Below are positions 3,001 through 53,056 of a DNA stretch of 64,000 nucleotides, piece by piece (position 1 is the first letter of the stretch; each line of letters begins with the position of its first letter). Source of the DNA: Alphaproteobacteria bacterium (GTDB lineage Bacteria; Pseudomonadota; Alphaproteobacteria; UBA828); NCBI GenBank assembly GCA_963422645.2, contig CAXXVO010000007.1, forward strand, positions 448,001 to 512,000, given 5' to 3'. The notes below the pieces were generated by a model. The model worked only from the letters and a program-made list of their open reading frames with translations, was not told the origin of the DNA and searched no databases. A program made the translations under genes and the position numbers.

Positions 3001-5496
3001 TCGAGTGGCCACGCTGACCGCATGCTCTGGGAATGGCGCCCGTCTTGGCTTGCGAGTGGCCATGGGGATCGAGATGAAATTGCGAAGCGAGCCCATTACG
3101 TCGTAGCGCGCGTGCCGGCATCGCTCGCAAGAGGCCTTGCCATCCGGCAAGGGCTAACGGAGTCACGCGCTCGAGAAATGATTACCGAGTTAGGACGTCG
3201 CGGTATTGGCCTGGCTTCGTTGCAGGCTACCGGCGGTACGCAGGAGAGTGCAGCGGCAGGCCACTTCTATGCAACTCGGCTGTTGCTTCCCCCCGAGGGA
3301 CATGCACAGCCACAAAGCTGGTTTACTCCCGCCAACAATACATATTCTGGACTTCTGCCCATAGACCCAGTGTCAGAAATCTTGTGCGCCATTGCCGGGG
3401 AGTCCCCTAATCGCCGTGCCGATCTGCTCGTGTTCAAGGTGATTATCGAGGGCGATGCGGTCCGCGTCAAAATCTTACCCATCGAGGTGAAGCACCATGG
3501 CCAACCCCAGTCACCGAGCCCGCTCCCCGCAGATTCTGATCGGGAGCTCAAGCGCGCCAGGGAACAACTGAAGGAGGCTTCGAAGCTCGTTCGAGCATTG
3601 TCAGCAGCGCTAGATCCAGGTCCGGAACTCGCTGACGATCCCGCAGCCGCGGTTACGCGCAGACAAGCTTGCGCAGTTCTCCTCGATCTTGCACTCAGTT
3701 TCGCCGACGAGGAGGTAGACCCTCGGGCTCGAGCGATGATCCTAAGATGCGTGGTCCAAGGGCGAGTGGTCGTCGATGCGGCACCCGCAATGCTGCTTTG
3801 GTTCGCCCCCGGTTCCATGGCTTCAAGCGGAGCGGCGTGCATAGTTCGCCCCGGCACGGGGGGAAGCCGCGAAGCCTTCATTGACCCTGCGGTGGTTCCT
3901 GGCACCTGGTGGCAAGATACACCGCCAGGACCTGACGACGCTGCTTTGAGAAGTGCGATTGACGACGCACTGCGGGAGATGCTCAGGGCAAGAAAGGACA
4001 TCCCCGCGGAACCAGAAACCGATCTCACCGCAGCGCTCTTGGGAATGCTTGATCTGGCGTCTGACACGGCAAGTGAACCCGCACCTGCCGGACCGACTGA
4101 GGGTGAACCTACCGGATTGCTGCCAGCGGACCGAGAAGCGGACCAATCAGGAACGGCCGATCCGAAAACGAGTGAACTCGCAGCGCGAGTAATCGAAGCT
4201 AGGGTAGATGCAAATTCCGCCACCACTTCCCACGCTGATATTAAGGCTTCCAATGAGCCTGCGTCGTCCGTCTTTGTACCTGCCAACATGGCACCTCCGG
4301 CAGCTTATGTTGGTTGGGATAAGCCCGCTACACGATATTGTCTCTTGGGAAATCTTGTTGATACCGGCGAGAAGGTGGGACTTGACCTTGATAATCCGAA
4401 GGCGATTGGGGTTTTCGGATATATGGGTTCAGGCAAGAGCTATCTGCTTGGAACGCTGGTCGAGTCGTGCCTTGTCCCGATAGCGGGTATCAACTCGCTA
4501 CCGGCACCTCTCGCCGTTGTCATCTTCAATTACCGCCGCCACTCCGCCGATCGTTTCGAGTTAAGCTCTCTTGCGCACCCCAATCCCGATCAGAAAGACC
4601 GCGAGCGCCTCGAACGGATGTATCAAGCGTCACCTCAGGCAGTGGACGATATTCATATACTGTGCCTCCCCGGCCAACTAACTCCGGAGCGGGTCGCCGA
4701 GTACGGCGGCTTGCCGACTACGGAGCTCTTTTTCGATCCATCCGCGCTTGGCGTGGAGGATTGGGAGCTCCTCATGGGTGAACCTGGGAGCAACGCCGTA
4801 TTTGCCAGGGCAATCAGAAATTCATTGATGGATCTGCAGGCGGCCGGCGATGTCAGCCTCGAAAGCCTCGAGCGAAGCATCGCCAATACGCTGAACAGGG
4901 CGAGTCAATCGGCGGCTCAGCTTAGGTTGGACTTCATGCGTAGGTATCTCTCTGCGGAGCGAGGTCTACGATTTGGCGAAATTCTGAGACCAGGGCGAAC
5001 TGTGATTTTCGACCTTCGCCAACCTTTGTTCAACAAGGATGATGCCCTCCGTTTTTTCTTGGTATGCTCAAATCATATCAGCCGGGTACAAGGCGGGTTC
5101 AACAAGCTCGTCGTATTTGATGAAGCGCACGAATACTTGAGCGAGGCATTCGGAGAGAAGATAGAAGCGCGAATCCGTTTAATGCGACATGAGGGTACGT
5201 CGTACGTCTTTGCTACACAGGACGTGGGGTCAATCCCCCTCCAGGTCAGGCGGTTCATCACCACGAGGTTTGTCTTTGGCCTGGGGACTCGCGACAACGT
5301 CAATGATCTGGTGCGATTTGCGCCAGAATTTGCAAACCTGCCGTTGCAACAGCTCGCACCAGGAACTTGCTATGTCCAATCAGCCCCCTCACAACGCAAT
5401 TTGTTTGAGCGCCCGCGATTGGTTCAGGTGCGCCCGCGAGTGACACAGCATGGTGGAACAAGCCGGATCTTCCCAGTCGCGGCTGAAGACAAGTAG
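10..5496 (+). CDS. Large defence-type protein: PD-(D/E)xK nuclease domain plus C-terminal HerA/FtsK-type P-loop ATPase (DndH/DptH-like); probably 5'-truncated by the window edge
   Basis: 1828-aa ORF whose frame is open to base 1. Nuclease-like motif RRADLLVF...ILPIEVKH...AREQL (~nt 3410-3570), acidic/Pro linker, Walker A GYMGSGKS (nt 4417), Walker B LVVFDEAH (nt ~5107-5130), then R-H-x-G...FATQ typical of HerA/FtsK ATPases. Lower GC than the rest of the window. Confidence 0.7.
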   Translation: MESFKDSASWLAEVLVAAFEHAGGTATEHWTDRFLEHWALTWSDLEKGMKSLGSAPEERHAWELLRLAGIPVPARESDTENPFLQTPVARLRGLEVGSVRFTRFIQWWQLVIDEFVIPRGGIETLLMALDLQVPGAQKPTPWRGLDWTRALDMTSGSPAPVVARRVFACAPSPTVLMPNPPAFPVAPVPAWWGVNAHQIARAQKALHEARGLVSNPSCTSLTVLPGREAALILLTRAGAVSEETLARKWRASLSLSGLSLRLKEPWTSLLVAHSPPPQGAHGTTAIEPDSVKLHVSGTGVKAEVRAVRVSSGEHLQVEFDTTITYSAAVDSRGTKSGSWHPVRALRLTASARDGNGTGWGELRTVDHSVEVVVPSCFSPTLLSYSGSRGKIVVAPDRGDTFVRVGPGDANWNASSTPDLLLAEEGSYDLVGYDGRIIGGGSFGAEAVIEVEGRSFTLIGGLQHVEARLDEGDQVTGSTTGVIAVAKVRQRSRSVTSGLVAAIRKSGPGRKPPSSSARSSVLGRFQSAVASSVRGSSDDTHSSLFQYVLGTAQTITEWPPLCSGTAPTVMANLPVGFQLPGVGNGLSPSVVASTTWIEFMAAAHAVLDHLGVRQAGEEIWLSAMNPGELPGVVVWALVEAHRNLIADVRAASAGDAFWASYPFSVIVVDDTPGANLGQVQAVFLSPLHPVRLAWAFSVARLAQSPGVDRTLLGLAEGWNLPLTGTTISVTGQPIPMVALPLDPGEDADFATWSALAILGNDGLVRAPRLAAGLELPWGGPSGINEKVVSQAITDYLSIHPYLNSLEIDVRSVSRAPRAREIDDALIRTVGGATVNEVSLLGGATRVWDSRNRLGEPPSRDQLLKLRDTNRRDRPFEWRRYSETSAAPVSDIALIESASAHMGAVEAQTTGVLGPLPLRRFTVPAISGQVLDQQYAAYPGDDVLGISRLLAEIEHTLPSGLAALRVAPQANALGIGSGARWEVLGTLNVDPALLSRIIRSSGHADRMLWEWRPSWLASGHGDRDEIAKRAHYVVARVPASLARGLAIRQGLTESRAREMITELGRRGIGLASLQATGGTQESAAAGHFYATRLLLPPEGHAQPQSWFTPANNTYSGLLPIDPVSEILCAIAGESPNRRADLLVFKVIIEGDAVRVKILPIEVKHHGQPQSPSPLPADSDRELKRAREQLKEASKLVRALSAALDPGPELADDPAAAVTRRQACAVLLDLALSFADEEVDPRARAMILRCVVQGRVVVDAAPAMLLWFAPGSMASSGAACIVRPGTGGSREAFIDPAVVPGTWWQDTPPGPDDAALRSAIDDALREMLRARKDIPAEPETDLTAALLGMLDLASDTASEPAPAGPTEGEPTGLLPADREADQSGTADPKTSELAARVIEARVDANSATTSHADIKASNEPASSVFVPANMAPPAAYVGWDKPATRYCLLGNLVDTGEKVGLDLDNPKAIGVFGYMGSGKSYLLGTLVESCLVPIAGINSLPAPLAVVIFNYRRHSADRFELSSLAHPNPDQKDRERLERMYQASPQAVDDIHILCLPGQLTPERVAEYGGLPTTELFFDPSALGVEDWELLMGEPGSNAVFARAIRNSLMDLQAAGDVSLESLERSIANTLNRASQSAAQLRLDFMRRYLSAERGLRFGEILRPGRTVIFDLRQPLFNKDDALRFFLVCSNHISRVQGGFNKLVVFDEAHEYLSEAFGEKIEARIRLMRHEGTSYVFATQDVGSIPLQVRRFITTRFVFGLGTRDNVNDLVRFAPEFANLPLQQLAPGTCYVQSAPSQRNLFERPRLVQVRPRVTQHGGTSRIFPVAAEDK

Positions 5497-6386: not shown

Positions 6387-7073
6387 TTATTTGTCGGACA
6401 GTCGCCGCCCGTGAGCCTCCACAATACGCGATATTCCTTTGTCTAGAATTTCTATATTGATGCGTGCTTTCCGATATAGAGCAATATGCATTTTGACAAA
6501 TATATTGAATAAGTTCGCTTGATGGACCATGGTCCCGAAGAAGAGTTGATTTACAGCTTCTTCGTCATCGACGAGAAATGGTGCGATCGATCCCAAGTTT
6601 CCGTCCGTTGGCTTGAACTGAGTTCTGGCTCCGGCGAAAAGCAGTCGGACACCAAGCTTGTCGAATGAGTCGTACCGAGCCATTTGTGTGGCAACATCGG
6701 GAGAACGTCCGAAATGTCTCGCTCGGTCTAAGGGATTTTGAAGAACGAGTTGAGGTCCATGTTTGAGCTTGTTGTAAGCAATCGAAACTCTCGGAATTTG
6801 TGTCTCAACGTGGAACGAATTAGCAACTCGCCGGAGCTCGCTGGGAAGCTGTCTCCAAAACTCAATATGGCGTTTGGGAATGAGCCTTGTGCTCGGAATT
6901 GCTCGCCATTTGTACCCGAGAAAGAACTCGACGATCTCCGCATCGGTCTTTTCGCATACTTCCTGAAAAAACGATCTTCGGTTTACCTGAACGCTTGTGG
7001 ATTTGTTGCTCTTTAGTTTTGTGTGTACCTCTTGTATCTCGGACCCATCTTTTATCGTCAATTGGTGCCTCAT
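6387..7073 (-). pseudogene. Low-GC hypothetical protein, possible HEPN-like domain; probably the 3' remnant of a gene cut by IS66
   Basis: 228-aa ORF with AYNKLKHG (N-x-x-K-H, HEPN-like). Its ATG lies 1 nt from the IS66 end at 7075, leaving no native RBS or promoter. Confidence 0.4.
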
Positions 7074-7074
7074 G

Positions 7075-7687
7075 GTAACTGCCCAGGTACCCCCTCTCTC
7101 TTATGGAACAAGCCAGTTCCTTTTGCGTCAACGCCCCCACGCCGCGGGGGTGCCTACTCTCTTGAGCGCGAGAGGATGATGAACGCCGCGTCGCGAACAA
7201 GATGAGAGGACAGCGATACTCAGGATGAGCCGGAGAAGTTCAGGAGCGCAGTATAGGGATCAGCTGCATCGGTTCCGGGTGCGCCAGGATTTGCAGGATG
7301 TTCCAGCCTTGCTTTCGAGCGGTGACGATGACGCTGCGCATTCCGGCGAAGTTGCAGGCGCCTTGCAGGGAGCGGAAGCCGCCTGAGATCTTCTCATGCA
7401 CTTTGTTCATACGGATGTCACGCTCCGCCTCGTTATTCGTGAACGGCGTGCGCAGGTCGGTGAGGAAGCGCAGGCAGCCCTCCTTATGCTTTTGAAGGCG
7501 GCGCGCGAGGTTGTGGCCGATGCGGCGTTTCTTTCGCCCTCGCTTTGCGATCTGGAGCGGCGGTTGGGCCTCATGGAAGGCGATGGCTTCTTCGAGGATA
7601 CGGTCCCATGCCCTTGAGATGCGGGCCACCAGGGAGGCGGGGACTTGACGGTCTTTCTCACGGGCGAAGCGGGCGGCCCTGCGCGCG
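7075..7687 (-). mobile_element. Truncated IS66 (right end plus 3' tnpC fragment), inverted copy of 28395-29007
   Basis: Starts with TIR GTAACTGCCCAGGTACCCC. The 613 bp match the reverse complement of 28395-29007 by eye, and ORF 7240-7629 equals the C-terminus of the transposase ending at 28842. Identity stops abruptly at 7687. Confidence 0.93.
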
Positions 7688-7843
7688 AAACCGACCCGAT
7701 TTGCCGCCGTCGCAAGACCCCTGAAACGCCCCGAAAATCGCCGTTTCCAGCCAATTCACGGCCTCTGCACGGCCCGATTCGCAAAGACTTCCGTCCGCAC
7801 GCCAGCCGCCGCACCGCCACCGTGCCGCCGCGCATCCCCTTGA

Positions 7844-12477: not shown

Positions 12478-12626
12478 CCTCAGGCCTCCGCTTCGGCAAA
12501 GATCGTAACTGTGCGCCGCAGATGGGGTAGTGTGGGGCAGCGGATATCGCGCGGCAACGGTCCGGCCCGGCCGATCAAGGGAGCGCCGTGGTGCCGGCAC
12601 CGACCGCGCCTATAAGGGAGGCAACC

Positions 12627-14075
12627 ATGTCGACGCTGATCAGGGGCGGCACGGTGGTGACCGCAGACGAGCGCTACCCGGCCGATGTCTATTGCGCGGA
12701 CGGCAAGATTCAGGAGATCGGGACCGGCCTCGACGTGCCCGCGGGCACGGCGACGGTCGATGCCGGAGAGGCGCTGGTCATGCCAGGAGGCATCGACCCC
12801 CACACCCATATGGAAACGCCCTTCATGGATACCGTGACTGGCGATGACTTCTATACCGGCCCCGCCGCCGGGCTCTCGGGCGGCACCACCATGATCATCG
12901 ACTTCGTCATCCCGGCGCCCGACCAGCGGCCGATGGACGCCTACCGCATCTGGCAGCAGCGCGCGGCGAAGGCGCCGTCGGACTATTCCTTCCACGTCGC
13001 GATCACCAACTGGAACGACGAGATTCACGAGGATATGGAGACGCTGACCCGCGATCACGGCGTCAACAGCTTCAAGCACTTCATGGCCTACAAGGGCGAG
13101 GTCATGCTCGACGCGGAGAAGATGATGAACAGCTTCGCGCGGGCGCGGGATCTCGGCGCGCTCTGCACCGTTCACTGCGAGGACGGCCATCTGGTCTGGA
13201 TGATGCAGCAGGAGCTGCTCAAGGCCGGCGTCACCGGGCCGGAGGGCCACCCCCAGTCGCGCCCGCCCGAGGTCGAGGGCGAGGCGACCAACCGCGCGAT
13301 CCGCATCGCCCAGCTGCTCAAGGCGCCGATCTACATCGTCCACGTGACCTGCCGGGAGTCGCTGGAGGCGATCACGCGCGCGCGCCTGGAGGGGCAGCGG
13401 GTCTATGGCGAGTGTCTGGCGCAGCACCTGGTGATCGACGATAGCGTCTATTACGACCCCGACCCGGAGGTCGCCCGCGGCTACGTGATGAGCCCGCCCT
13501 TCCGGCCCAAGGACCATCAGGAGGACCTCTGGCGCGGCCTGCAATCGGGCAACCTGCAGACCACGGCGACCGATCACTGCGCCTACTGCAACTGGCAGAA
13601 GGAGAAGGGCAAGGATGACTTTTCCAGGATCCCGAACGGCACCAGCGGCATCGAGGACCGCATGTCGGTGCTCTGGGACCAGGGCGTCGAGACCGGCCGG
13701 ATCACGGCCAACGAGTACGTCGCGATCACGTCGGCCAACGCCGCGAAGATTTTCAACGTCTATCCGCGCAAGGGGGCGATCAAGGTGGGCGCGGACGCGG
13801 ACATCGTTGTCTGGGACCCCAAGGCCACGCGCACGATCTCGGCCAAGACCCATCTCCAGAACAACGATTTCAATATCTATGAGGGGATGACCGTGACCGG
13901 CGTCGCCCGCGCCACCGTGAGCCGGGGCCGGCACGTGTGGGACGGCTCGGAGATCCGCGCCGACCAGGGCGACGGCGCCTACGTCGAGCGGCCGACCTTC
14001 CCGGCCGTGTTCGACGCCGTGAACACGCTGCGCGCCCGCCACCCCTTCCGCAGCGTCGATCGCCCGGCCGGCTAG
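12627..14075 (+). CDS. hydA: Dihydropyrimidinase / D-hydantoinase
   Basis: LIRGGTVV, PGGIDPHTH, GVNSFKHFMAYK (carbamylated Lys), VHCEDG, YVMSPPFR, TATDHC, GADADIVVWDP. RBS GGGAGG. Confidence 0.93.
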   Translation: MSTLIRGGTVVTADERYPADVYCADGKIQEIGTGLDVPAGTATVDAGEALVMPGGIDPHTHMETPFMDTVTGDDFYTGPAAGLSGGTTMIIDFVIPAPDQRPMDAYRIWQQRAAKAPSDYSFHVAITNWNDEIHEDMETLTRDHGVNSFKHFMAYKGEVMLDAEKMMNSFARARDLGALCTVHCEDGHLVWMMQQELLKAGVTGPEGHPQSRPPEVEGEATNRAIRIAQLLKAPIYIVHVTCRESLEAITRARLEGQRVYGECLAQHLVIDDSVYYDPDPEVARGYVMSPPFRPKDHQEDLWRGLQSGNLQTTATDHCAYCNWQKEKGKDDFSRIPNGTSGIEDRMSVLWDQGVETGRITANEYVAITSANAAKIFNVYPRKGAIKVGADADIVVWDPKATRTISAKTHLQNNDFNIYEGMTVTGVARATVSRGRHVWDGSEIRADQGDGAYVERPTFPAVFDAVNTLRARHPFRSVDRPAG

Positions 14076-14198: not shown

Positions 14199-15503
14199 TT
14201 AGACGGCTGCGCTCCAGCTCCGTTCGCAGACGATCTCCGGGTCCTCCCTGAACACCTTGAGCGGCGAGCAGGGCGGCGGGACCGAGATCGCCTGAATCAC
14301 GGTCAGGGGCTCGCGCAGGTAGTCGCCGAGCGCGCAGTCTTCGGCGCTCCGCTCCGGGGTTTCGATATGCGTGCCCAGGCGGCGGCCGAAGCGGACCAGG
14401 GCGCGGCCGTAGCGGGTCCGCTCCTCGTCGTAGGCCGAAAGCGCGCTCCCGAGATCGCCAGGATGGGCCTCGATGGCCCGGGTGAGGCAGTTCGCATCGC
14501 CGGTCGCCTTGACCACGCCCATGCCGGTGTGGGGCCTGGCGGAGAACGCCGAATCGCCCAGCATGGCGACGCGCCCCTGCACCATCCGGGGCACCTCCAG
14601 GTCCACGATGGTCTGGAAGAAGAGCCCTTCCGCCAGGCTCATCGGCTCCGCGAGCGAAGGCGGCAGGCGCTCGGCCGCCGTTCGATGGACCTCATCGATG
14701 AACGAAGGGAGGATAAGGTGCGGCGCGATCCCCCCCTCGTGATAGTGGCCGGTGGCGTCGGTCTGCATCCGCCGCAGCTTCTCGGCCGGGGTCAGCGTGT
14801 ACCAGACGATGTTGAAGCGGCGCTTGCCGGGGCTCAGCTCGCCCTCCGGGCCCGCCACCGGGTAGGCGACCACGTGCTCGCCGGGCGGCAGGTAGACGAT
14901 GAAATGCGACATCAGCATGTCGCGCCACTCGGCCGAGAGCCGGTTCTCGTCGACGATGCCGCGCCAGGCGACATAGCCCGCGTACTGCGGCGCCGCATCC
15001 GGCCAGACCTGGGGGCGAACTGTGGAGCGCACGCCGTCGGCGCCGATCAGAAGATCGGCCTCGATGCTGGTGCCGTCGGCGAAGTGCGCAAGCACGCCCT
15101 CGCCGTGGGGCTCGAAGCCTGTAAAGTTGGCGCCAGAGATGTAGCGCTCGCCGGGAAAGTTGCTGCGCAGCAGGCCGAATAGATGCCCCCAGGACGCCTG
15201 GATCTGCGGCAGGCGGTAGCGCGCGAGAATGCTGCCGTCGGCGCCGAGGGTGATGCGCTCCTCGAGCCTCACGCCATAGGCCTCGTCGATGGACAGCCCC
15301 AGGCTCTCGAGCGCGGCGTGAAGCTCCGGGTGGGTCGCGATGCCGACGCCCCGCTCGGCAAGCTCGGTGCCGATCCGCTCGTGCACCGTCACGTCGCAGC
15401 CGGCGCGGTAGAGCATGTTGCCGGCGAGCAAGCCGCCCATCGACCCGCCGACGACAACCACGCGGGGGCTTCGGGCACCTTGCCCGACAGAACCCTTTGT
15501 CAT
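14199..15503 (-). CDS. FAD-dependent monooxygenase (2,6-dihydroxypyridine 3-hydroxylase-like class A flavoprotein)
   Basis: VVVGGSMGGL, DLLIGADGVRSTVR, YAGYVAWRG, LGDSAFSARPHTGMGVVKA. Confidence 0.85.
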   Translation of the reverse strand: MTKGSVGQGARSPRVVVVGGSMGGLLAGNMLYRAGCDVTVHERIGTELAERGVGIATHPELHAALESLGLSIDEAYGVRLEERITLGADGSILARYRLPQIQASWGHLFGLLRSNFPGERYISGANFTGFEPHGEGVLAHFADGTSIEADLLIGADGVRSTVRPQVWPDAAPQYAGYVAWRGIVDENRLSAEWRDMLMSHFIVYLPPGEHVVAYPVAGPEGELSPGKRRFNIVWYTLTPAEKLRRMQTDATGHYHEGGIAPHLILPSFIDEVHRTAAERLPPSLAEPMSLAEGLFFQTIVDLEVPRMVQGRVAMLGDSAFSARPHTGMGVVKATGDANCLTRAIEAHPGDLGSALSAYDEERTRYGRALVRFGRRLGTHIETPERSAEDCALGDYLREPLTVIQAISVPPPCSPLKVFREDPEIVCERSWSAAV

Positions 15504-15774
15504 GGAAACTGACTCCGTTCCAAGCGTTACTTACCGCTCGGGCGGGCGGCCCCGAAGCCGGCCCGCCGCGAACGAATTTCCGGGCACAAGCCTACGCCAT
15601 GCGCGCGCCGCTCGCCATTCGGCAGCGTGCGTGCCGGCTCTCTTGCGCCACACTTTTCCTTCACACGCCTCGCGGTATACCCTCTCCGCGATTGCCCACC
15701 GGGGCGTCGATTACAGGGGTCTGGGCGCCGGCCTGGTCCCAAAGCGTGTCGCGAGCGAGAGGGAGTGGGGGCTT

Positions 15775-16086
15775 ATGCATCTCACTGTGCGGGAAGAAGA
15801 ACGGATACAGATTTGGGCCGCGGCGGAGATGGCCAGGCGGCGTCTCGATCGGGGCGTCAAGCTGAACTACCCCGAGGCGATCGCTCTGATCTGCGACGAG
15901 ATTCTCGAGCGGGCGCGCGAGGGCAGCATCCCGATGCTGACCGACATGATGGAATACGGCGCCACCATCCTGAAGCGGGACGACGTGATGACCGGCGTGC
16001 CCGAGATGATGAAGATCGTCCAGGTCGAGGCCATGTTCCCGGACGGGACGAAGCTCGTCACGGTGATGAACCCGATCCGCGAGTAG
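15775..16086 (+). CDS. ureA: Urease subunit gamma
   Basis: MHLTVREEER...RGVKLNYPEAIALI...QVEAMFPDGTKLVTV; ATG at 15775. Confidence 0.95.
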   Translation: MHLTVREEERIQIWAAAEMARRRLDRGVKLNYPEAIALICDEILERAREGSIPMLTDMMEYGATILKRDDVMTGVPEMMKIVQVEAMFPDGTKLVTVMNPIRE

Positions 16087-16111
16087 CGCGGGCCAAGCGT
16101 GGAGAAGAGCC

Positions 16112-16621
16112 ATGGCTGAGAGAAAATGGAGCCCGCCGCCTATCCCGGAATCGATCGTGCCGGACGAGGCGTTCGAGGTGGGCGAGCCGGAGAAGTGCGG
16201 CGCCATCGACTTCGCCGACGACGACATCGAGATCAATGCCGGTCGCCCCGCGATAGAGGTCGTCATGGTCAACACCGGCGACCGCCCGATCCAGATCGGC
16301 GCCCACTACCACCTCGCCGAGTGCAACAGGGCGATGGCCTTCGACCGGGCGGCCGCCTTCGGCATGCGCCTCGACGTGCCGAGCGGCAGCGCCGTGCGCT
16401 TCGAGCCCGGCCAGAGCCGCAAGGTGCAGATCACCGGCTACGTCGGCCGCCAGGTCGCCTACGGCATGAACAACATGACCAACGGCTCGGTCCGCTCCGG
16501 CATCATCAAGGAGCAGACCATGCGTCGCCTCAGGGCCGAGGGCTATTGCTTCGAGGGCGAGCGTTTTCCGGTGCAAACGCCGCCCGACGAGAAGTTCGGC
16601 GGCGGCAAGGACGGCGACTGA
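16112..16621 (+). CDS. ureB: Urease subunit beta with terminal extensions
   Basis: IEINAGR, NTGDRPIQIGAHYH, GMRLDVPSGSAVRFEPG. Confidence 0.95.
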   Translation: MAERKWSPPPIPESIVPDEAFEVGEPEKCGAIDFADDDIEINAGRPAIEVVMVNTGDRPIQIGAHYHLAECNRAMAFDRAAAFGMRLDVPSGSAVRFEPGQSRKVQITGYVGRQVAYGMNNMTNGSVRSGIIKEQTMRRLRAEGYCFEGERFPVQTPPDEKFGGGKDGD

Positions 16622-16678
16622 GGTTGGCAGCGCCGGCCTGAGAAGGCGCCGGCCGCGCCAGGAGTGGGGAAGCAAAGC

Positions 16679-18385
16679 ATGAGCATGAAGATCGCCCGCC
16701 CGGACTACGCCGCGCAGTACGGGCCGACCACCGGAGACAAGATCCACCTCGCCGACACCGGCCTCGTGGCCGAGATCGAGCACGACTACACCACCTATGG
16801 CGACGAGTTGGTTTTCGGCGGCGGCAAGACCATCCGCGACGGCATGGGCCAGGCGTCGAAGTGGAAGCAGAGCGACGGCGGGCTCGACATGGTGATCACG
16901 AACGCCGTGATCATCGACCCCGTCCTCGGCGTCGTGAAGGGCGACATCGGGGTGCTGGACGGCGAGATCGTCGGCGTCGGCAAGGCCGGCAACCCCGACA
17001 CCATGAACATCACGCCGGGGCTCATCGTCTCGCCCAACACCGACATCCTCTCGGTGGAGGGGATGATCTGCACGCCGGGCTTCGTCGACATCCATCCCCA
17101 CTTCGATTCCGTGCAACAGCTCTACGAGTATCAGAACGCGGGCTTCACCACGGTGATCGGCGGCGGCTCGGGACCGAAGACGGTGGGCATCGAGTGCCCC
17201 GGCGTCTTCAACATCCAGCGCATGCTGGAGGCGATGGCGGACATCCCGCTCAACTTCGGCAACTTCGGCAAGGGCAACGCGGCGACGCCGGGCTCGCTGG
17301 TGGAGCAGATCCTCGCTGGCGCCACGGGGCTGAAGATCCACGAGGACTGGTCGTCCTCGCCCGCCGCCATCGAGACCACGATGGAGCTTGCGGACGAGTA
17401 CGACTTCCAGGTCCAGATCCACGCCGACACGCTGAACGAGACCGGCTACTACGAGGACACCATCGCCGCGATCAACGGCCGCGTCATGCACATCTACCAC
17501 TGCGAGGGCGCCGGCGGCGGCAACGCGCCCGACATGATGCGAGTCTGCGGCGAGCCGAACCTGCTGCCAAGCTCGACCAACCCGACCAACCCCTTCTCGA
17601 TCAACACGTACGACGAAGAGATCGACATGTTGATCACCTGCCACAACCTGAACAAGAGCGTGCCGACGGACATCGCCTTCATCCAGGGCCGCGCACGCGC
17701 GGAGACCATGCGGGCCGAGGACGTGCTGCACGACATGGGCGCGATCAGCATGATCGGCTCCGACAGCCAGGGCGTGGGCCGCGCGGCGGAGAGCGCGCAG
17801 CGCTCCTTCCAGCTCGCGGCGGTCAACAAGGTGCGCTTCGGGCGGCTCTCGGAGGACGGTTCGGGCAACGACAACTTCAGGATCAAGCGCTATCTCGCCA
17901 AGGTCACGATCAACCCCTCGATCTGCTTCGGCGTCGACTCTTACGTGGGCTCGATCACGCCGGGCAAGCTCGCGGACCTGGTGTTCTGGCGGCCCGAGTT
18001 CTTCATCGCCAAGCCCGAGGTGACGCTGAAGGGCGGCTTCATCTCGCACGCGGTGATGGGCGACCCGGCGGGCTCGCTGATGACCGGCCAGCCGCTCAAG
18101 TACCGCCCGCAGTACGGCTCCCTCGGCGTCAACCCGAAGCGGACCTGCTACTCCTTCGTGACCAAGGCGGCGCTCGACAACGGCCTCGCGGACCAGATCG
18201 AGACCCAGAGGCTGGTGCCGGTGAAGCGCTGCCGCACGATCTCCAAGCGCGACATGATCCACAACGACGCGCTGCCGGATATCGAGATCGACCCAGAGAC
18301 CTACAACGTCTACGTCGATGGCGAGCGCGTCACGGTGAAGCCGGCAAAGACCCTGCCGCTGACCCAGCTCTTCTACTTCCGCTAG
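16679..18385 (+). CDS. ureC: Urease subunit alpha, divergent active-site pocket
   Basis: YGPTTGDKIHLADT, FGGGKTIRDGMGQ, DIHPH, GLKIHEDW, IHADTLNE, HIYHCEGAGGG, LPSSTNPT, CHNL, SDSQ, terminal LPLTQLFYF. Confidence 0.95.
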   Translation: MSMKIARPDYAAQYGPTTGDKIHLADTGLVAEIEHDYTTYGDELVFGGGKTIRDGMGQASKWKQSDGGLDMVITNAVIIDPVLGVVKGDIGVLDGEIVGVGKAGNPDTMNITPGLIVSPNTDILSVEGMICTPGFVDIHPHFDSVQQLYEYQNAGFTTVIGGGSGPKTVGIECPGVFNIQRMLEAMADIPLNFGNFGKGNAATPGSLVEQILAGATGLKIHEDWSSSPAAIETTMELADEYDFQVQIHADTLNETGYYEDTIAAINGRVMHIYHCEGAGGGNAPDMMRVCGEPNLLPSSTNPTNPFSINTYDEEIDMLITCHNLNKSVPTDIAFIQGRARAETMRAEDVLHDMGAISMIGSDSQGVGRAAESAQRSFQLAAVNKVRFGRLSEDGSGNDNFRIKRYLAKVTINPSICFGVDSYVGSITPGKLADLVFWRPEFFIAKPEVTLKGGFISHAVMGDPAGSLMTGQPLKYRPQYGSLGVNPKRTCYSFVTKAALDNGLADQIETQRLVPVKRCRTISKRDMIHNDALPDIEIDPETYNVYVDGERVTVKPAKTLPLTQLFYFR

Positions 18386-18410
18386 GCGGCCGGCTCGGGC
18401 CGCGACGCGC

Positions 18411-18887
18411 ATGGCGGTCGTCACCGCGGTCCTCGGCACCGTCGAATCCCTGCGCGGCCGCTTCGAGAACGAGGACCCGGTCCTGCTCAACTCGGAGGAG
18501 CGCGCGAGCGCCCACCTCGTGGGCCGCTCAGAAGGCGGGCGCAACGTTCGCATCTCGCTGCCGCGCGGCACCGAGATCAACGACGGCGACGTGCTCACGC
18601 TGGAGGGAACCACGGCCGTGGTGGCGCGCGCGGCGCCGGAGGCGCTCTACGTGGTCAGCCCCGACGACGCCTACACCTGGGGCGTCGCCGGCTACCAGCT
18701 CGGCAATCTGCACCGGCCCGTGCGCTTCACGGACGATGGCATGCTGACGCCGGCCGACCCCATGGTGGCCGATCTTCTCACGCGCCTCGGCATCGCCTTC
18801 GAGGAGCGGACCATGCCCTTCGTCGGCCGCCGCTACGGTGCCCACGGCGCGCACCATCATCTCCACGACCACCACCATGACCACTGA
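18411..18887 (+). CDS. ureE: Urease accessory protein UreE (Ni chaperone)
   Basis: GYQLGNLHRP motif and a His-rich C-terminus. Confidence 0.92.
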   Translation: MAVVTAVLGTVESLRGRFENEDPVLLNSEERASAHLVGRSEGGRNVRISLPRGTEINDGDVLTLEGTTAVVARAAPEALYVVSPDDAYTWGVAGYQLGNLHRPVRFTDDGMLTPADPMVADLLTRLGIAFEERTMPFVGRRYGAHGAHHHLHDHHHDH

Positions 18888-19575
18888 CGCGCCCGACCGT
18901 CTCCTTTACCTGCTGCAGGTGGCGAACGCCTCGTTCCCGACCGGCGCGTTCAATCACTCCTACGGCTTCGAGACCTGGATCGACTCAGGCGCACTCGACA
19001 ACGCCGCAAGCTTCGAGAGCGCCTGCCGGGACTGGCTCCGCTACGCCGCCGTGCCGACGGACGGGGCCGCCGTCGCCCTCGCCCACCGACACGCCGCCGC
19101 CGGCGATCTCGACGGGCTCGTGGACCTCGACCACATCGTCTGCGCGCTCAAGCTCAGCCGTGAGGCGCGCGAGGCGTCGTTCAAGACCGGCCGCGCGCTG
19201 CTCGGCGCCTACCGCGACATCTTCTCGGCCGATTCCCTCGCTCCCTTCGCCGAGGCGACGCGCGACGGGCGCTGCGAGGGGCATCAGGCGGTCATCTTCG
19301 GCGCGGCGGCTGAGGCGCAGGGTATCGGCGTGGAAGACGCGGTGCTTGCCTTCCTTCACGCGGCGCTCTCCAACCTGGTCAGCGTCGGCGCGCGGCTGAT
19401 CCCCCTCGGCCAAATCGAGAGCCAGCGCATCGTGCGGGAGGCTTGGCCGCTGCTGACCCGAGGGGCCGACCAGGCCTGCGCCATGGAGATCGACACGCTC
19501 GGCAGCGCCACCGCCGGCCTCGATGTCGCCAGCATGCGGCACGAGCGCCTGCACACGCGGCTCTGCATGTCATGA
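18877..19575 (+). CDS. ureF: Urease accessory protein UreF
   Basis: [20 protein letters not shown], terminal [11 protein letters not shown]; overlaps the ureE end. Confidence 0.93.
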
Positions 19576-19612
19576 TAGGTTAGCCACGGAACAGCCGGGG
19601 AGGTCTTGGGGT

Positions 19613-20257
19613 ATGCGCAAGCCGGTCAGGATCGGCATCGGCGGGCCGGTGGGCTCGGGCAAGACGGCGCTGCTGGTGTCGCTCTGCCGCAGCATGGGCG
19701 GGCACCATTCGCTGGCCGCCATCACCAACGACATCTACACCAAGGAAGACGCCGAGTTCGTCGTCAAGTCCGGCGCCATCGCGCCCGAGCGCGTGGCCGG
19801 CGTCGAGACCGGCGGCTGCCCCCACACCGCGATCCGCGAGGATGTCTCGATGAACGCCCACGCCATCGAGGAGATGGCGGCGCTGCATCCCGACCTCGAC
19901 ATCGTCTTCGTCGAGAGCGGCGGCGACAATCTCGCGGCGACCTTCAGCCCCGAGCTGGTGGACAGCTACATTTACGTGATCGACGTGGCGGAGGGCGACA
20001 AGATCCCGCGCAAGGGCGGCCCCGGCATCACCAAGTCGCCGCTGCTGGTCATCAACAAGATCGACCTCGCGCCCTTCGTCGGTGCCGACCTGGGGGTGAT
20101 GGAGCGCGATTCCAAGAAGATGCGGGGCGCGCGGCCCTTCCTCTTCACCAACCTGCGCGCCGGCGACGGCCTTGCCGAGGTGATCGCCTGGATCGAGCGC
20201 GACGTTCTCCTGATGGATGGGCATGACGGAGCCGAGCAGCGCGCCCATTCAGCCTGA
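19613..20257 (+). CDS. ureG: Urease accessory GTPase UreG
   Basis: [33 protein letters not shown]. Confidence 0.97.
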
Positions 20258-21095
20258 TCCCGAATGGATCGTCGGCAAGTACGCGCTGATGAACGTCCGC
20301 GCGATGAGCCGGCTCGGGCGCACGGAAATCGACCCGCTCTGCTGGCGCATCCCCTTCCAATGGCAGGGCTATCACTACCAGGATCACGACGACCAGCCCT
20401 TCATGCTGCTGCTCAACAGCGGCGGCGGCTTCGTCGAGGGCGACGTCTCGCACTTCAATGCCGTGCTGGAGCCCGGCACCCGCGCCCTCTTCACCACCAC
20501 GGCATCGAGCAAGTTCTACAAGTGCCCGGGCGGGGCGATCTCGCGCGAGATCGTGGACCTCCATGTGGGCGAAGACGCGCTGCTGGAGTTCTGCCCGGAC
20601 GAGGCGATCCCCTTTGCCCGCAGCCGGGTGCACCGAATCAACCGCATCGCGCTGGAGCCCTCGTCGCGGCTCTTCGCCACCGACATGGTCTCGGCAGGCC
20701 GGGTGCACTATGGCGACGGCGAGATCTTCCGCTTCCACCGCCTGGTCTCCGAGTTCCGCATCGCCATCGGTGGCCGGCTGGTCGCCCTCGACCGCCTGAT
20801 CGCGACCACGCCCGAGACCATCGCCGCGCTGCAGAGGCTGTGGCAGGAGCGGCTGCACATGGCGATGGCGTTCGCCTACGCGCCGGACCTGGCGCCCGGC
20901 GTCGAGGACGACGTGCACGAGGCGATCGAAGGCGTCGACGGCACCGAGGCGGGCGTCACCCGCATCGGCAACCTGGTGATCGTCCGCATCCTGAGCCACG
21001 AGACCTGGCAGGCCCACGAGACCCTCTTCAACGCGTGGGCCGCGCTCCGCCCCGCCATCGCAGGCAAGAACGCCCGCCCGATACGCAAGTGCTAG
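20217..21095 (+). CDS. ureD: Urease accessory protein UreD
   Basis: [46 protein letters not shown], terminal RPIRK. Confidence 0.88.
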
Positions 21096-21315
21096 CCCCG
21101 ACTTCTCGCCCTTGCGCACCATCCGATCATCCCGGTTCACGGCGACCCGAACGACACCCACCTCCCCATTCACCCTGCCGAACCAATTTCGCAGAGGAAT
21201 CCTATTAGGGGGGAGAGGGACGGGGAGAGGTGAGTGTGCGGCCGTATCGGCACCGGTTGTCAGCGCCCGCGCGCTCTCATAGTCTCCGCGCCAGTCAAGT
21301 GGAGAGGAGGTCGCG

Positions 21316-22221
21316 ATGGCCAAGAAGGAAATCTTCGTCGCAATCGGCGTGGACGTCGATTCGGTGGCGGGGCAGATCGGTTCCTACGCGGGCGGCGATT
21401 CGCCGAGCGACATTTCGCGGGGCGTGTTCGCCTCCGAGGTCGGAACCCCCCGCATGCTCAAGCTCTTCGACCGGGCGGGAATCCAGACCAGCTGGTTCAT
21501 CCCCGGCCACTCGATCGAGACCTTCCCGAGAGAGATGAAGGCGGTCGCGGCGGCAGGGCACGAGATCGGGCTGCACGGCTACACTCACGAGAACCCGATC
21601 TCGATGACGCCAGAGCAGGAGGCGGACGTCCTCGACAAGACCCTCGATCTGGTGACCAAGCTCGCCGGCAAGGCGCCCACGGGCTACGTCGCGCCCTGGT
21701 GGGAGATGAGCCCGTTCACGCCCCACCTCCTGATGGAGCGCGGCATCAAGTACGACCACAGCCAGATGCACAACGACTTCGAGCCCTATTGGATGCGGAT
21801 CAACGAGGAGTGGACGTTGATCGACTATTCCAAGCCGGCGAAGTCGTGGATGAAGCCGATGAAGAAGGGCACCACCTTCCCCATCGTGCAGATCCCCGGC
21901 AGCTGGTACCTCGACGACCTGCCGCCGATGATGTTCATGAAGAAGGTGCCGAACTCCGGCGGCTGGACCAACCCGCGCGATATCGAGGACTGGTGGCGCG
22001 ATCAGTTCGACTGGGTCTATCGGGAGATGGACTACGCGGTCTACACGCTGACCATCCACCCCGACATCTCGGGCCGGCCGCAGACGCTGCTGATGCTGGA
22101 GCGCATCATCGCCCACATCGCCGCCCATGAAGGGGTGACCTGGGCGACCTTCGACGAGATCGCCGACGACTTCATCAAGCGCCGGCCCTTCAAGGGCAAG
22201 AGGGCACCCAAGAAGAAGTAA
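21316..22221 (+). CDS. CE4 polysaccharide-deacetylase-family metallohydrolase (HP0310/PgdA-PuuE-like subgroup)
   Basis: [49 protein letters not shown]; strong GGAGG RBS. Confidence 0.85.
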
Positions 22222-22235
22222 GCCGCAGGCCCGCG

Positions 22236-22598
22236 ATGTGCGCGCTCTGCGGCGTGCTCACCGACGGCCCGCATTGGACTGAGGCAGGCACCGATGCGGG
22301 CCGGAGCGCCGAGGCGCCCACCGGCCGGGAGCGGCACCTGGAGCGCGCGCGGCGCCTCGCGCTGCTGAACCGCGTGCTGAGCGCTTACGGCTGCACCGCA
22401 GACGACTGGGCCGGCGCGCAATACATGGTGCACCGGCGGAGCGGCGGCGCGACCGAGATGGCGGCCGACCTGCCCACGCTCTGGGCCGCGGTCGAAGGCT
22501 TGGTCGGCTATGCGCCCGATCCGCTAGACCCCGCCCTGGTCGCGCGGCTCGAGGCTGCGCCATCCGCCGGGGGGCGCGCGGCCCGGCGGCGGGCTTGA
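22236..22598 (+). CDS. Small protein with N-terminal CxxC...HW motif
   Basis: MCALCGVLTDGPHWTE; fills the gap between the CE4 gene and the COG0523 gene. Confidence 0.7.
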   Translation: MCALCGVLTDGPHWTEAGTDAGRSAEAPTGRERHLERARRLALLNRVLSAYGCTADDWAGAQYMVHRRSGGATEMAADLPTLWAAVEGLVGYAPDPLDPALVARLEAAPSAGGRAARRRA

Positions 22599-24613: not shown

Positions 24614-26499
24614 GTAACTGCCCAGGTCGTCTGATTTGTCATTTTGGGCCAGTGGATTGAGGCGTTTCTCGTTCGGAGTTGGTGGAAAGGGCTTGACGGG
24701 AATTTCGGGAAATGACTCAACAACGACATGAGCAATCCCGAGTCGCCGCGCGGCCCTTCGACGGGAGCAGCGCCCGAAACGCCCGCGCAGAAGATCGCCC
24801 GCCTGGAGGAGGAGAACGCCCGGCTTCGGGAGGAAAATGCCTGGCTTCGGCAGCAGAACGCGCGGCTGGAAGAGCAAGTCGCGCGTCTCGTCGAGCGCAT
24901 CGAGGAGTTGGAGCGCCGTCTCGGCCTCAACAGCGGCAACAGCGGCAAGCCGCCTTCGAGCGATGGGCTGAGGAAGCCGAATTCGAAGCGGCGAACCCGA
25001 AGCCTGCGCGGCAAATCGGGCCGCAAGCCCGGTGGCCAGCCCGGCCACAAGGGCAAGACGCTGCGCCGCGCCGATCACCCGGATCGGGTGAAGGATCACG
25101 TCCCGGCTTCCTGCAAGGGATGCGGTTCGCCGCTTTCGGACGCGGCCAGGGCGGGAACGCCCGTCGCCCGCCAGGTGTTCGATCTGCCCGAGCCGAGCCC
25201 CCTGGAGGTGACCGAGCACCGGGCGCATGCCAAGTGCTGCGGGCATTGCGGGACGGTGACCCGGGCGGCGTTCCCCGACGGGGTGTCGGCGCCGGTGCAG
25301 TACGGCCCGCGCATTGCCGGGGTGGCGGTCTACCTTCAGCACGCTCACTTCCTGCCGGAGGATCGGCTGTCGCAGGTGATGGCCGAGCTCTTCGGCGCGC
25401 CGGTGACGGCTGCGACGTTGGCGACGATGAGCGAGAGGGCGGCCGAGCGGCTGCGGGACGCGGCCTTGCACATACAGGACCTGGCGGCGGGCACGGCGCG
25501 GGTGAAACACATGGACGAGACCGGCTTGCGGATCGGCGGTCAGACGCAGTGGCTTCATGTGATCTGCACGCCGCTGCTGGCGGCGTACCGGGTCAGCGGC
25601 AAGCGCGGCGCCCTGCTCTCGGGTGTCTCCGGCATCGTCGTGCACGATCACTGGAAGCCGTACTTCGCGATGGAAGGGGTGGAGCACGGCCTGTGCAACG
25701 CCCATCACCTGCGGGAGTTGCAGGCGCTGGTGGACATCGAAGGGGAGGCTTGGGCCCGGCGGATGCAGCAGCTCCTGCGCCGAGCCAATCGCGCCGCCCG
25801 CATCGCGCTGGACAAGGATATCGCCGTTCCGGCGAGGCTTGTGGCGCTGATCGAGCGCCGATACGACGAGATCATCGCCGATGCGCTGGCCTTTCACGAG
25901 AGCCAACCACCGTTCTCGCCTGGCAAGAGGAAGAAGCGCCGGAAGCGAAGGATCGGTCACAATCTGGCCTTGAGGCTGCGCGACCACAAATGCGCGGTGC
26001 TCCGGTTCCTGATCGACCTCGAGGTCGGGTTCACGAACAACGAGGCCGAGCGCGACCTTCGGATGATGAAGCTGCGCCAGAAGATCTCCGGGGGCTTCCG
26101 GTCCGCGCAGGGGGCCGAGAACTTCGCCATCCTGCGCAGCGTCATCACCACCGCCAGAAAGCAGGGCTGGAATATCATCGAAGCCCTGACCAGCCCATCG
26201 GATCGGCTCATCGCCACCGTCAAGTGCGCGTAAGCTCACCTGGCACGGGTTCTCCAACAGCGGAGCCATTCTCATAAACGATCATGGTCGACGCCGTGCT
26301 GGACCACCCCATAGAATGAAAATCGGTGCCCGTCGCGCGGGCGGACTTCGGGCCACATCGGGGTAGCTTACCGGTCGCAGTCCGCAAGAGGGGCATCGTG
26401 AGCTGTGAAACCCGGCGACCCCAGAGGAGCACACGGGCGTCGCGTGGGTAGCGTTGTGCCGAATCCCAGAGAATTTTCACAGCAAGAACCTGGGCAGTT
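24614..26499 (+). mobile_element. Single-ORF IS66-family element (ISBst12-like organisation); right TIR lacks the terminal AC
   Basis: Left TIR GTAACTGCCCAGG at 24614; right CCTGGGCAGTT ends at 26499 and abuts the next IS. No tnpA/tnpB and no TSD seen. Confidence 0.9.
24728..26233 (+). CDS. tnpC: IS66 transposase TnpC
   Basis: Leucine zipper, NSGKPPSSDG, GGQPGHKG, CxxC pairs, HMDETG, HDHW, CNAHHLREL, FTNNEAERDLR. Confidence 0.95.
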   Translation: MSNPESPRGPSTGAAPETPAQKIARLEEENARLREENAWLRQQNARLEEQVARLVERIEELERRLGLNSGNSGKPPSSDGLRKPNSKRRTRSLRGKSGRKPGGQPGHKGKTLRRADHPDRVKDHVPASCKGCGSPLSDAARAGTPVARQVFDLPEPSPLEVTEHRAHAKCCGHCGTVTRAAFPDGVSAPVQYGPRIAGVAVYLQHAHFLPEDRLSQVMAELFGAPVTAATLATMSERAAERLRDAALHIQDLAAGTARVKHMDETGLRIGGQTQWLHVICTPLLAAYRVSGKRGALLSGVSGIVVHDHWKPYFAMEGVEHGLCNAHHLRELQALVDIEGEAWARRMQQLLRRANRAARIALDKDIAVPARLVALIERRYDEIIADALAFHESQPPFSPGKRKKRRKRRIGHNLALRLRDHKCAVLRFLIDLEVGFTNNEAERDLRMMKLRQKISGGFRSAQGAENFAILRSVITTARKQGWNIIEALTSPSDRLIATVKCA

Positions 26500-52723: not shown

Positions 52724-53007
52724 TAGCGGGGGGCTTCTGTTGCCCGGCGCCCCCCAAGCCGCGCTTACCTAGCGATGCTAGGCAGCGAGTGCGACTTCAT
52801 TGTCATTCGCACCTAAGAGTTGGCCCGATAACGGCGGTACCATGCCGGGCGAAAACCACACCTTTACCACGCACGTCGATCCTGGTTCGCCCCCGCAACT
52901 TGAGCCGTCGGCCCGATGGGTGGTGGAGGCGCCGGGTACTGCCCCCGGGTCCGCAACGCTTATTCCGAGCAGCGTTTATCGCCATAGTCGACGGTCGCCC
53001 GCCGACC
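52724..53007 (-). ncRNA. ssrA: Permuted (two-piece) tmRNA
   Basis: Acceptor piece ends ...CCCGGCGCCTCCACCA at 52921. After a short intervening segment the coding piece starts GGGGGCGAACCAGGATCGAC at 52894 (7-bp acceptor stem with G3.U). Tag ORF ANDNEVALAA* at 52810-52778. Outer ends approximate. Confidence 0.95.
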
Positions 53008-53012
53008 CCGAC

Positions 53013-53041
53013 AATATAGGTGCTAACGGCGCGCATTGGAA
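53013..53041 (-). promoter_or_regulatory. Putative ssrA promoter
   Basis: Minus strand TTCCAA-17 nt-TATATT just upstream of the acceptor piece. Confidence 0.5.
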
Positions 53042-53056
53042 GCGCTTGCCGCACCT

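Follow-up and report, generated by a model that had tools for sequence, protein, structure and literature searches.

A distinct, mobile lineage of UreC with a re-fixed active-site flap, probably a true nickel urease isozyme

Urease is the textbook nickel enzyme, held to be almost absolutely specific for urea, and we know of no urease homologue with another physiological substrate. Does the ureC gene at positions 16679–18385 of a 64,000-nt stretch of alphaproteobacterial DNA (hereafter the window) encode such an exception? A sequence-only reading had noted an intact di-nickel site and a number of altered pocket motifs, and had proposed a substrate other than urea. We find that the UreC encoded here (P0001) belongs to a clade, termed clade A, in which the catalytic core has been kept and the gating flap re-fixed, a natural experiment on the role of the flap. 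The protein is, in our judgment, probably a true nickel urease isozyme of a distinct mobile lineage, with altered flap gating. In this scheme, ureABCEFGD would form a complete, self-sufficient, nickel-dependent urease with ureC as its catalytic subunit, and urea would be hydrolyzed via the standard di-nickel, bridging-hydroxide mechanism.

Catalytic groups of the window's UreC

The gene and the sites within it that bear on the question are as follows.

16679–18385, + strand: ureC, urease alpha subunit of clade A (P0001); 568-aa translation, 749.2 bits against TIGR01792
17159–17203, + strand: short 'Ala167' loop, GGGSGPKTVGIECPG; its 3-residue deletion is common to the whole short-loop superclade
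17522–17524, + strand: codon for Asn282 (in GGGNAPD); His in 68/68 references of groups D, E and G
17597–17713, + strand: helix-turn-helix active-site flap with its hinges, residues 307–345; 10 of the 23 clade-fixed replacements
17762–17782, + strand: DSQGVGR; ligand Asp362 kept, Gly365 equivalent to Ala363, Val366 equivalent to Met364

Every motif quoted in the sequence-only reading was found where that reading had placed it within 16679–18385, as were the metal ligands and the equivalents of Klebsiella aerogenes H219, D221, C319, H320 and R336. By an alignment with the Yersinia enterocolitica urease and by the column table of the UreC alignment, all six di-nickel ligands are kept: H139 and H141 (in HPHFDSV), K219 (GLKIHEDW), H248 (IHADT), H274 (HIYH) and D362 (DSQGVGR, from nt 17762, which also holds G365 and V366). 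K219 would be the carbamylated lysine of the metal site. The five further equivalents are H221 and D223 in GLKIHEDW, C321 and H322 in TCHNL (residues 320–324, also containing N323) and R338 in QGRAR; we take K. aerogenes UreC numbers to be P0001 numbers minus 2. The altered motifs include GGGNAPD, which starts at nt 17513 and contains N282, and DEEIDM, with E314. Compared with the classical ATGTNATTCT-type loop, GGGSGPKTVGIECPG lacks three residues.

How urea would sit in this pocket can be judged from the Sporosarcina pasteurii enzyme, whose numbering minus 3 agrees with the K. aerogenes numbering. In its complex with urea and fluoride, as described in PMC7433671, His222 holds the urea oxygen, and Asp224, His323 and Arg339 lock the flap; the backbone carbonyl of Ala366 contacts both NH2 groups of urea, joined by that of Ala170 at the Ni-bound group and by that of Gly280 at the distal one. 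The side chains that contact urea or lock the flap (His222, Asp224, His323, Arg339 and Asp363 in S. pasteurii numbering) are all present in P0001. At the carbonyl-donor positions (Ala167, Gly277 and Ala363 in K. aerogenes), P0001 has a Gly (by loop alignment), Gly279 and Gly365; since an Ala-to-Gly change leaves the backbone carbonyl in place, the backbone groups that would contact urea remain. The first shell around urea thus appears intact by sequence, and the alterations appear to lie in the lid and the second shell. Given this apparently unaltered first shell, urea is most likely the substrate.

Profile and structure comparisons point the same way. P0001 scores above the cut-off of the NCBI urease-alpha equivalog TIGR01792 (EC 3.5.1.5; 749.2 versus 680 bits) and of the subfamily model NF009686 (780.8 versus 354 bits), and its start is backed by full-length homologues of 567–570 aa. 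An AlphaFold2 model from a 44-sequence alignment (pLDDT 88.1, pTM 0.93) keeps the urease fold, superimposing on K. aerogenes urease (1fwg_C) with a TM score of 0.96 and an rmsd of 1.7 Å at ∼49% identity; its flap helices span residues 310–321 and 329–336. The closest solved relative is the Y. enterocolitica urease (4z42_C, E = 6.8e-190), in which the alignment reads CHNL, as had been expected of Yersinia-type ureases. Nothing that we found points to a non-urea substrate, or to any particular alternative, and with the urea-contact groups retained by sequence and the TIGR01792 cut-off passed, this part of the earlier proposal is not supported.

Flap replacements, linked importer and copy number

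We aligned 242 distinct UreC sequences (homologues, the collected loci and the window genome's own paralogues) and built a tree. P0001 is a member of a distinct, supported clade within a short-loop superclade (support 0.993). The nodes joining A+B, A+B+C and A+B+C+D have supports of 0.94, 0.973 and 1.0, and the A+B+C stem measures 0.333 substitutions per site, versus 0.05–0.15 for other groups. The superclade has in common the 3-residue loop deletion, HxHFDS and DSQ-G (Ala363→Gly). Its group D is of the KTVGIDA type and its group E of the ITVGIDC type, the latter with loci in a Bifidobacterium metagenome-assembled genome (MAG), Methylobacterium, Rhodopseudomonas, the Pseudomonas syringae group and Paraburkholderia; related short-loop forms occur in Lachnospiraceae and Oscillospiraceae MAGs and in cyanobacteria. 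Groups D and E are sister lineages of clade A. Unlike clade A, they and the related forms keep GGGHAPD, CHHL, ESRI/VR and GMGR, and most also keep DEHLDM. The departures from near-invariant motifs that had been noted are all present, but three of them (HxHFDS, Ala363→Gly and the short loop) do not set this protein apart, being the rule in the superclade. Nested inside A is subclade B (16 sequences, P0064–P0076 included), of which 9 have His and 7 have Asn at position 282 and most have Val in place of the flap Cys (Cys319 equivalent); Val366, the Met364 equivalent, is specific to A+B. A library of representatives at 50% identity merged the clade into general urease clusters (best match 54%) and gave no resolution.

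Several findings weigh against a true urease: the flap replacements, the scores and binding site of a linked importer, an unusual regulator, the number of ureases per genome, and the literature. As to the flap, 243 reference positions are conserved at a level of at least 90% in 68 ureases of groups D and E (ordinary ureases by annotation and score only) and classical group G. The 124 sequences of clade A carry the reference residue at 205 of these positions, and at 23 a replacement is fixed at a level of at least 95%. Ten of the 23 (S307, E314, I315, I319, N323, I335, Q336, G337, M344 and R345 in P0001) fall in the flap and its hinges, residues 307–345, which hold 27 of the 243 positions; the corresponding hypergeometric P value, 2.4e-5, is descriptive only, because the sequences are related. 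Among the re-fixed residues are His280 and His312, each of which is His in 68/68 references. In K. aerogenes numbering, the clade-specific changes are H280N, H312E, L313I, H321N, A333I, E334Q, S335G, I342M, A343R and M364V, and I337A is also found in the flap of P0001. N280 and V364 are both absent from the ureases compared on this point (groups D, E and G, Haloarcula and the two Yersinia chains). Cys321, His322 and Arg338 are retained within the replaced flap. Outside it, the Thr→Ala change after His246 is one of the 23; a Pro between the two His of HxH is typical of the clade and is not among them.

One explanation of such a pattern is neofunctionalization, with a flap and second shell of mostly smaller residues admitting a urea analogue or small amide (an N-substituted urea, hydroxyurea, formamide, acetamide, or a ureido or carbamoyl compound) that a co-evolved importer supplies and a LuxR-type regulator senses. 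We regard this as possible, although on balance unlikely. The replacements are clade-fixed, lie at otherwise invariant positions and concentrate in the flap; several introduce smaller side chains (M364V, I337A, S335G, H321N, H280N); and the clade stem is long. Yet, by sequence, every group that binds urea directly is kept, the geometry of the di-nickel pocket leaves little room, and half of the noted 'pocket' changes are common to D and E. Moreover, position 282 switches between Asn and His inside the clade, which makes it an unlikely specificity switch.

The importer was counted, like other neighbors, at the 39 clade loci with full 10-kb flanks. A periplasmic binding protein gene is present at 28/39, and permease and ATPase genes of the same five-gene ATP-binding cassette (ABC) importer at 27–31. 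The idea that the changes might define a clade with recurrent neighbors is thus borne out, both by the A+B+C node and by these loci. The nearest curated models are archaeal-type urea transporter families, and the best solved relatives of the binding protein are UrtA urea binders (E ∼1e-35), followed by the amide sensor AmiC (1e-18); these similarities to urea importers speak against another substrate. Nevertheless, all components fall below the curated cut-offs (TIGR03669/03622/03727 or TIGR03407/03409/03408), with bit scores of 340 versus 494.8 for the binding protein, 252.8 versus 374.25 for UrtB, 327.4 versus 575.55 for UrtC, 235 versus 304 for UrtD and 269.6 versus 285.8 for UrtE.

The binding site of this protein may also have changed. 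Prochlorococcus UrtA (8HIC) contacts urea through W120, S122, Y141, Q144, E146, Y190, F192 and N246, according to PMC10392092. The clade-linked binders have Y, G, H, Q, E, Y, F and V at these positions in 35–36 of 38 sequences, and the Haloarcula hispanica binder, used as a control, has Y, S, Y, Q, E, Y, F and V. We considered W120Y and N246V as lost urea contacts and rejected them, as the control marks both as normal for archaeal-type urea binders, a point that detracts from neofunctionalization. Because the control has Tyr and Val at W120 and N246, only S122G and Y141H are peculiar to the clade-linked binders. These two changed contact positions hint at a modified binding site and are not proof of another ligand. 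As a separate matter, PMC10392092 calls W120 and N246 strictly conserved in archaea and bacteria, unlike the Tyr and Val seen in the H. hispanica pHH400 binder (L228:9647–10954).

A gene for a LuxR-type regulator (Autoind_bind plus GerE) is adjacent at 16 of the 39 loci, and such a regulator is not known as a usual one for urease. Copy number raises a further doubt. In the window genome, UreC is encoded three times (identities of 100, 54 and 49%), and three genes are also present in 9/12 other genomes of its genus. We counted UreC in 15 carriers outside the genus, a non-random set chosen as named or well assembled, and obtained 3, 4, 3, 2, 1, 2, 1, 2, 2, 2, 2, 4, 4, 3 and 2; clade A is an additional urease in 13/15 and the sole UreC in 2/15. 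Lastly, a literature search at the level of titles and abstracts found no description or assay of a clade member.

Retention as an extra paralogue is open to either interpretation. It is in keeping with neofunctionalization, as are the S122G/Y141H binder, the importer scores under the urea-transporter cut-offs and the unusual regulator. Hydantoin-type genes in the window's genus could be added (a D-hydantoinase gene; HyuA/HyuB genes at 8/65 loci), although the window's own flanks are not conserved beyond close relatives. In its fullest form, this explanation would make clade A the first urease-family enzyme to act physiologically on a small amide or on a urea analogue slightly larger than urea. 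It would work within a transferable module of three parts, namely a di-nickel hydrolase whose flap has been rebuilt, a co-evolved UrtA-like importer (Ser122→Gly, Tyr141→His) and a LuxR-type sensor, and the module would move between phyla, sometimes as a cassette bracketed by insertion sequences (IS). We find this fuller version rather doubtful. If true, a different substrate would mean a new enzyme activity and a new route of organic-nitrogen cycling.

A true urease offers its own account of the extra copies. That clade A is usually an extra copy argues for a non-redundant role, and altered flap gating would account for its retention alongside other ureases. On this reading, the rebuilt parts would be the mobile helix-turn-helix flap and part of the second shell (H280N, H312E/L313I, H321N, E334Q/S335G/I337A, M364V). 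These changes most likely alter gating, from which we infer different kinetics, pH dependence or inhibitor sensitivity, and the clade A enzyme would be a non-redundant isozyme beside co-resident ureases. Should urea be the substrate, the clade would provide a kinetically distinct urease for comparative enzymology. Harmless carriers available in culture (Hansschlegelia, Methylopila, Chelatococcus and Camelimonas) make the substrate question directly testable.

One special case of a true urease predicts a specific phenotype, namely specialization for pH or affinity: an acid-activated, Yersinia-like enzyme, or a high-affinity one for scarce urea. The Y. enterocolitica urease (4z42, 6yl3), besides being the best solved match, also has CHNL (H321N) and lacks His312 (AELFDM in place of DEHLDM). 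The Asp-His-Arg flap lock is pH-dependent, according to PMC7433671, and the cassette is linked to an importer of the high-affinity ABC type. On the other hand, the Yersinia enzyme keeps GGGHAPD, ESRVR, DSQAMGR and the long loop and is distant in the tree, where a CHNL-bearing pair (L116/P0134) also lies on the classical side; because clade A lies elsewhere, its likeness to Yersinia in CHNL is convergent. Moreover, no acid niche is evident for the hosts, which are free-living, marine or soil bacteria. Such a specialization therefore strikes us as improbable.

Comparison with better-known systems places these differences in context. The classical ureases of K. aerogenes and S. pasteurii are alike in their three subunits, UreDEFG maturation, fold and metal ligands, and differ in that the window's UreC has the shorter Ala167 loop and the 23 re-fixed positions. 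The H. hispanica pHH400 urease, with its UrtABCDE, is linked to the same kind of importer (the binders are 35.5% identical), but its UreC keeps GGGHAPD, DEHLDM, CHHL, ESRVR and DSQAMGR, and its binder keeps Ser122 and Tyr141.

Selection, expression and mobility

Another way to explain a divergent extra copy is decay, with an inactive paralogue retained as a source of accessory proteins. The model here is the Brucella ure2 cluster, which is reported to encode no active urease. The window's cluster is alone in its genome in holding all of ureE, ureF, ureG and ureD, as this idea would have it. In pairwise comparison with eight clade members, the window's ureC nonetheless gives dN/dS values of 0.04–0.18 for seven (the eighth pair was saturated), and dN for the stretch 300–372, which covers flap and pocket, is lower than for the whole gene. 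At least 95% of the 124 clade A sequences retain the catalytic residues, and clade A is the sole UreC in two of the 15 carriers. Given these dN/dS values and the fixation of the new residues at a level of at least 95%, the window's ureC is under purifying selection and is not decaying. Decay of this gene is effectively excluded, and we consider an inactive paralogue of the Brucella kind highly improbable; the earlier opinion that decay is unlikely, given an intact accessory set, agrees with these values and with the UreE, UreF, UreG and UreD matches listed below.

Brucella ure2 is of the Yersinia type, and the Helicobacter mustelae UreA2B2 is an iron enzyme without known accessory genes. Both resemble clade A in being a second, divergent urease cluster in the genome (for UreA2B2, 3qga), whereas the clade A operon, unlike UreA2B2, has the full nickel set.

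There is a weak sign that ureBC is expressed. Contig pieces from four metatranscriptome libraries are 93–98% identical to ureB and ureC, and one 782-nt contig spans the ureB–ureC junction; such contigs give neither level nor strand, may stem from DNA carry-over, and carry no information on the parts that they leave uncovered.

The other two UreC genes of the window genome, at G000:C9:581768–583468 (54%) and G000:C16:113269–114966 (49%), are both of the short-loop type. Elsewhere in this genome, the C9 copy is accompanied by a ureF and the C16 copy by a ureD, and a ureG stands by itself at C5:406267–406857. With the complete set confined to the window's operon, the three ureases may share maturation proteins. 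Clade A and the short-loop D/E types are often co-resident, 20–38 kb apart in three genomes. In Hansschlegelia plantiphila, a group-E cassette (L219:1454–7637) consists of a fused ureAB, ureC, ureG and an open reading frame (ORF) at 6621–7637; this ORF, in the position of ureD, matched no NCBIfam family. An aliphatic amidase gene (NF009802, 711 bits) immediately precedes the cassette, and the clade A operon of this genome is ∼38 kb away. The cassette differs from clade A both in its amidase linkage and in its fused ureAB, the clade A genes being separate. With two to four UreC genes of differing type in many genomes, clade A matters when ureC counts from soil, marine and host-associated metagenomes are interpreted.

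Clade A is horizontally mobile and patchy across phyla. Sequences of 78–99% identity occur in Alphaproteobacteria, in many MAGs and in the cultured genera Hansschlegelia, Methylopila, Chelatococcus, Camelimonas, Pseudaminobacter and Mesorhizobium plus one Rhodobacteraceae strain; other carriers are Beta- and Gammaproteobacteria MAGs, Thermoleophilia MAGs and two Mycobacterium isolates. Among 201 genomes of one carrier's family (Rhodobacteraceae-type), clade A was found in one, the carrier itself, and 163 others have a urease of ∼50% identity, which shows the rarity of clade A there and not its function. In this carrier (CP023454.1; L046), a HupE/UreJ gene and ureABCEFGD lie between 1234-nt inverted repeats, 99% alike and 6750 nt apart. 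The repeats are IS copies, at 6582–7815 and 14566–15799, and the arrangement is composite-transposon-like. The same sequence has an ALIL frameshift pseudoknot (RF01497) at L046:5212–5328. On plasmids, no UreC of clade A grade was seen: 168 of 169 matching records were below 60% identity and one was in the 60–80% band.

Operon and flanking genes

The operon is co-directional, in the order ureABCEFGD, with ureA and ureB separate. Its parts other than ureC are these.

15504–15774, + strand: intergenic, presumed promoter region between a divergent FAD-monooxygenase gene and ureA, read from the sequence
15775–16086, + strand: ureA, urease gamma subunit, 103 aa; TIGR00193 133.6 bits (cut-off 82.3), NF009712 137.3 bits (cut-off 123)
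16112–16621, + strand: ureB, urease beta subunit, 169 aa, extended N- and C-terminally; TIGR00192
18411–18887, + strand: ureE, nickel chaperone with a His-rich C-terminal tail; Pfam UreE_C 53.7 bits
18838–19575, + strand: ureF, start not fixed (the listed ORF overlaps the end of ureE); Pfam UreF 140 bits
19523–20257, + strand: ureG, GTPase, start not fixed; TIGR00101 334.3 bits (cut-off 204.2)
20217–21095, + strand: ureD; Pfam UreD 151.9 bits

For ureA, the profile matches cover residues 121–222 of the ORF at 15415–16086. The ureB product scores 125.9 bits against TIGR00192 (cut-off 90.3) over residues 29–127. UreE has 11 His residues and a tail rich in them, and the NCBIfam UreE models match it below their cut-offs; UreG has a P-loop at residue 99, CPH and NKID. 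On the strength of these UreG motifs and the UreE tail, the nickel-insertion set looks complete. A HupE/UreJ nickel permease gene adjoins the cassette in 9/39 of the full-flank loci. Regulatory elements were sought as well. A scan of 15400–22400 returned no sigma-70-like site, and in 15504–15774 no Rfam family matched and no convincing sigma-54 site was apparent by eye; the surroundings of the operon in the window, L005, L026 and L046 yielded neither a riboswitch nor any other RNA element.

Beside the window's own operon there is no importer of the kind described above. Its genome has seven matches to the UrtA model, none above the cut-off (best 310.8 versus 492.75 bits). UrtA-like genes lie at C6:126623–127747, C15:300554–301600, C15:365388–366392, C9:622947–623987, C18:16316–17362 and C5:472723–476325, and the one closest to the clade-linked type (52% identical) is on C9, ∼40 kb from the second UreC. 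The genome thus has many binding proteins of the urea/amide type and no canonical UrtA.

Flanking the operon in the window are genes for a D-hydantoinase, an FAD monooxygenase, a PuuE-like deacetylase, a COG0523 GTPase and a 3-hydroxyacyl-CoA dehydrogenase. We considered these as a clue to a pathway and did not use them as evidence, because their conservation does not extend beyond a few relatives that are nearly identical (L005–L008, L058). The D-hydantoinase/dihydropyrimidinase gene (TIGR02033, 564 bits) is upstream of ureA at 12588–14075 (+ strand), and the FAD monooxygenase gene (PRK07236) is just upstream of ureA at 14199–15503 (– strand). Sister genomes (e.g. L005:14700–18807) have genes for the ATP-dependent hydantoinase HyuA/HyuB after ureD, in 8/65 loci, so that two kinds of hydantoin-type enzyme are found beside a clade A urease in one genus. 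A recurrent small ORF on the strand opposite the transporter ATPase gene (cluster c13, 23 loci) was treated as a high-GC artefact.

The region past ureD in the window differs from that in its relatives, which carry HyuAB or the importer there. An IS66-family transposase gene (NF033517, 293 bits) lies at 24728–26233 (+ strand), 3.6 kb downstream of ureD. Elsewhere in the window are an alphaproteobacterial two-piece tmRNA gene (52725–53045, – strand; RF01849, 234 bits) and, at its start, a 1828-aa ORF (10–5496, + strand) with a local G+C content of 0.55–0.60 versus about 0.68.

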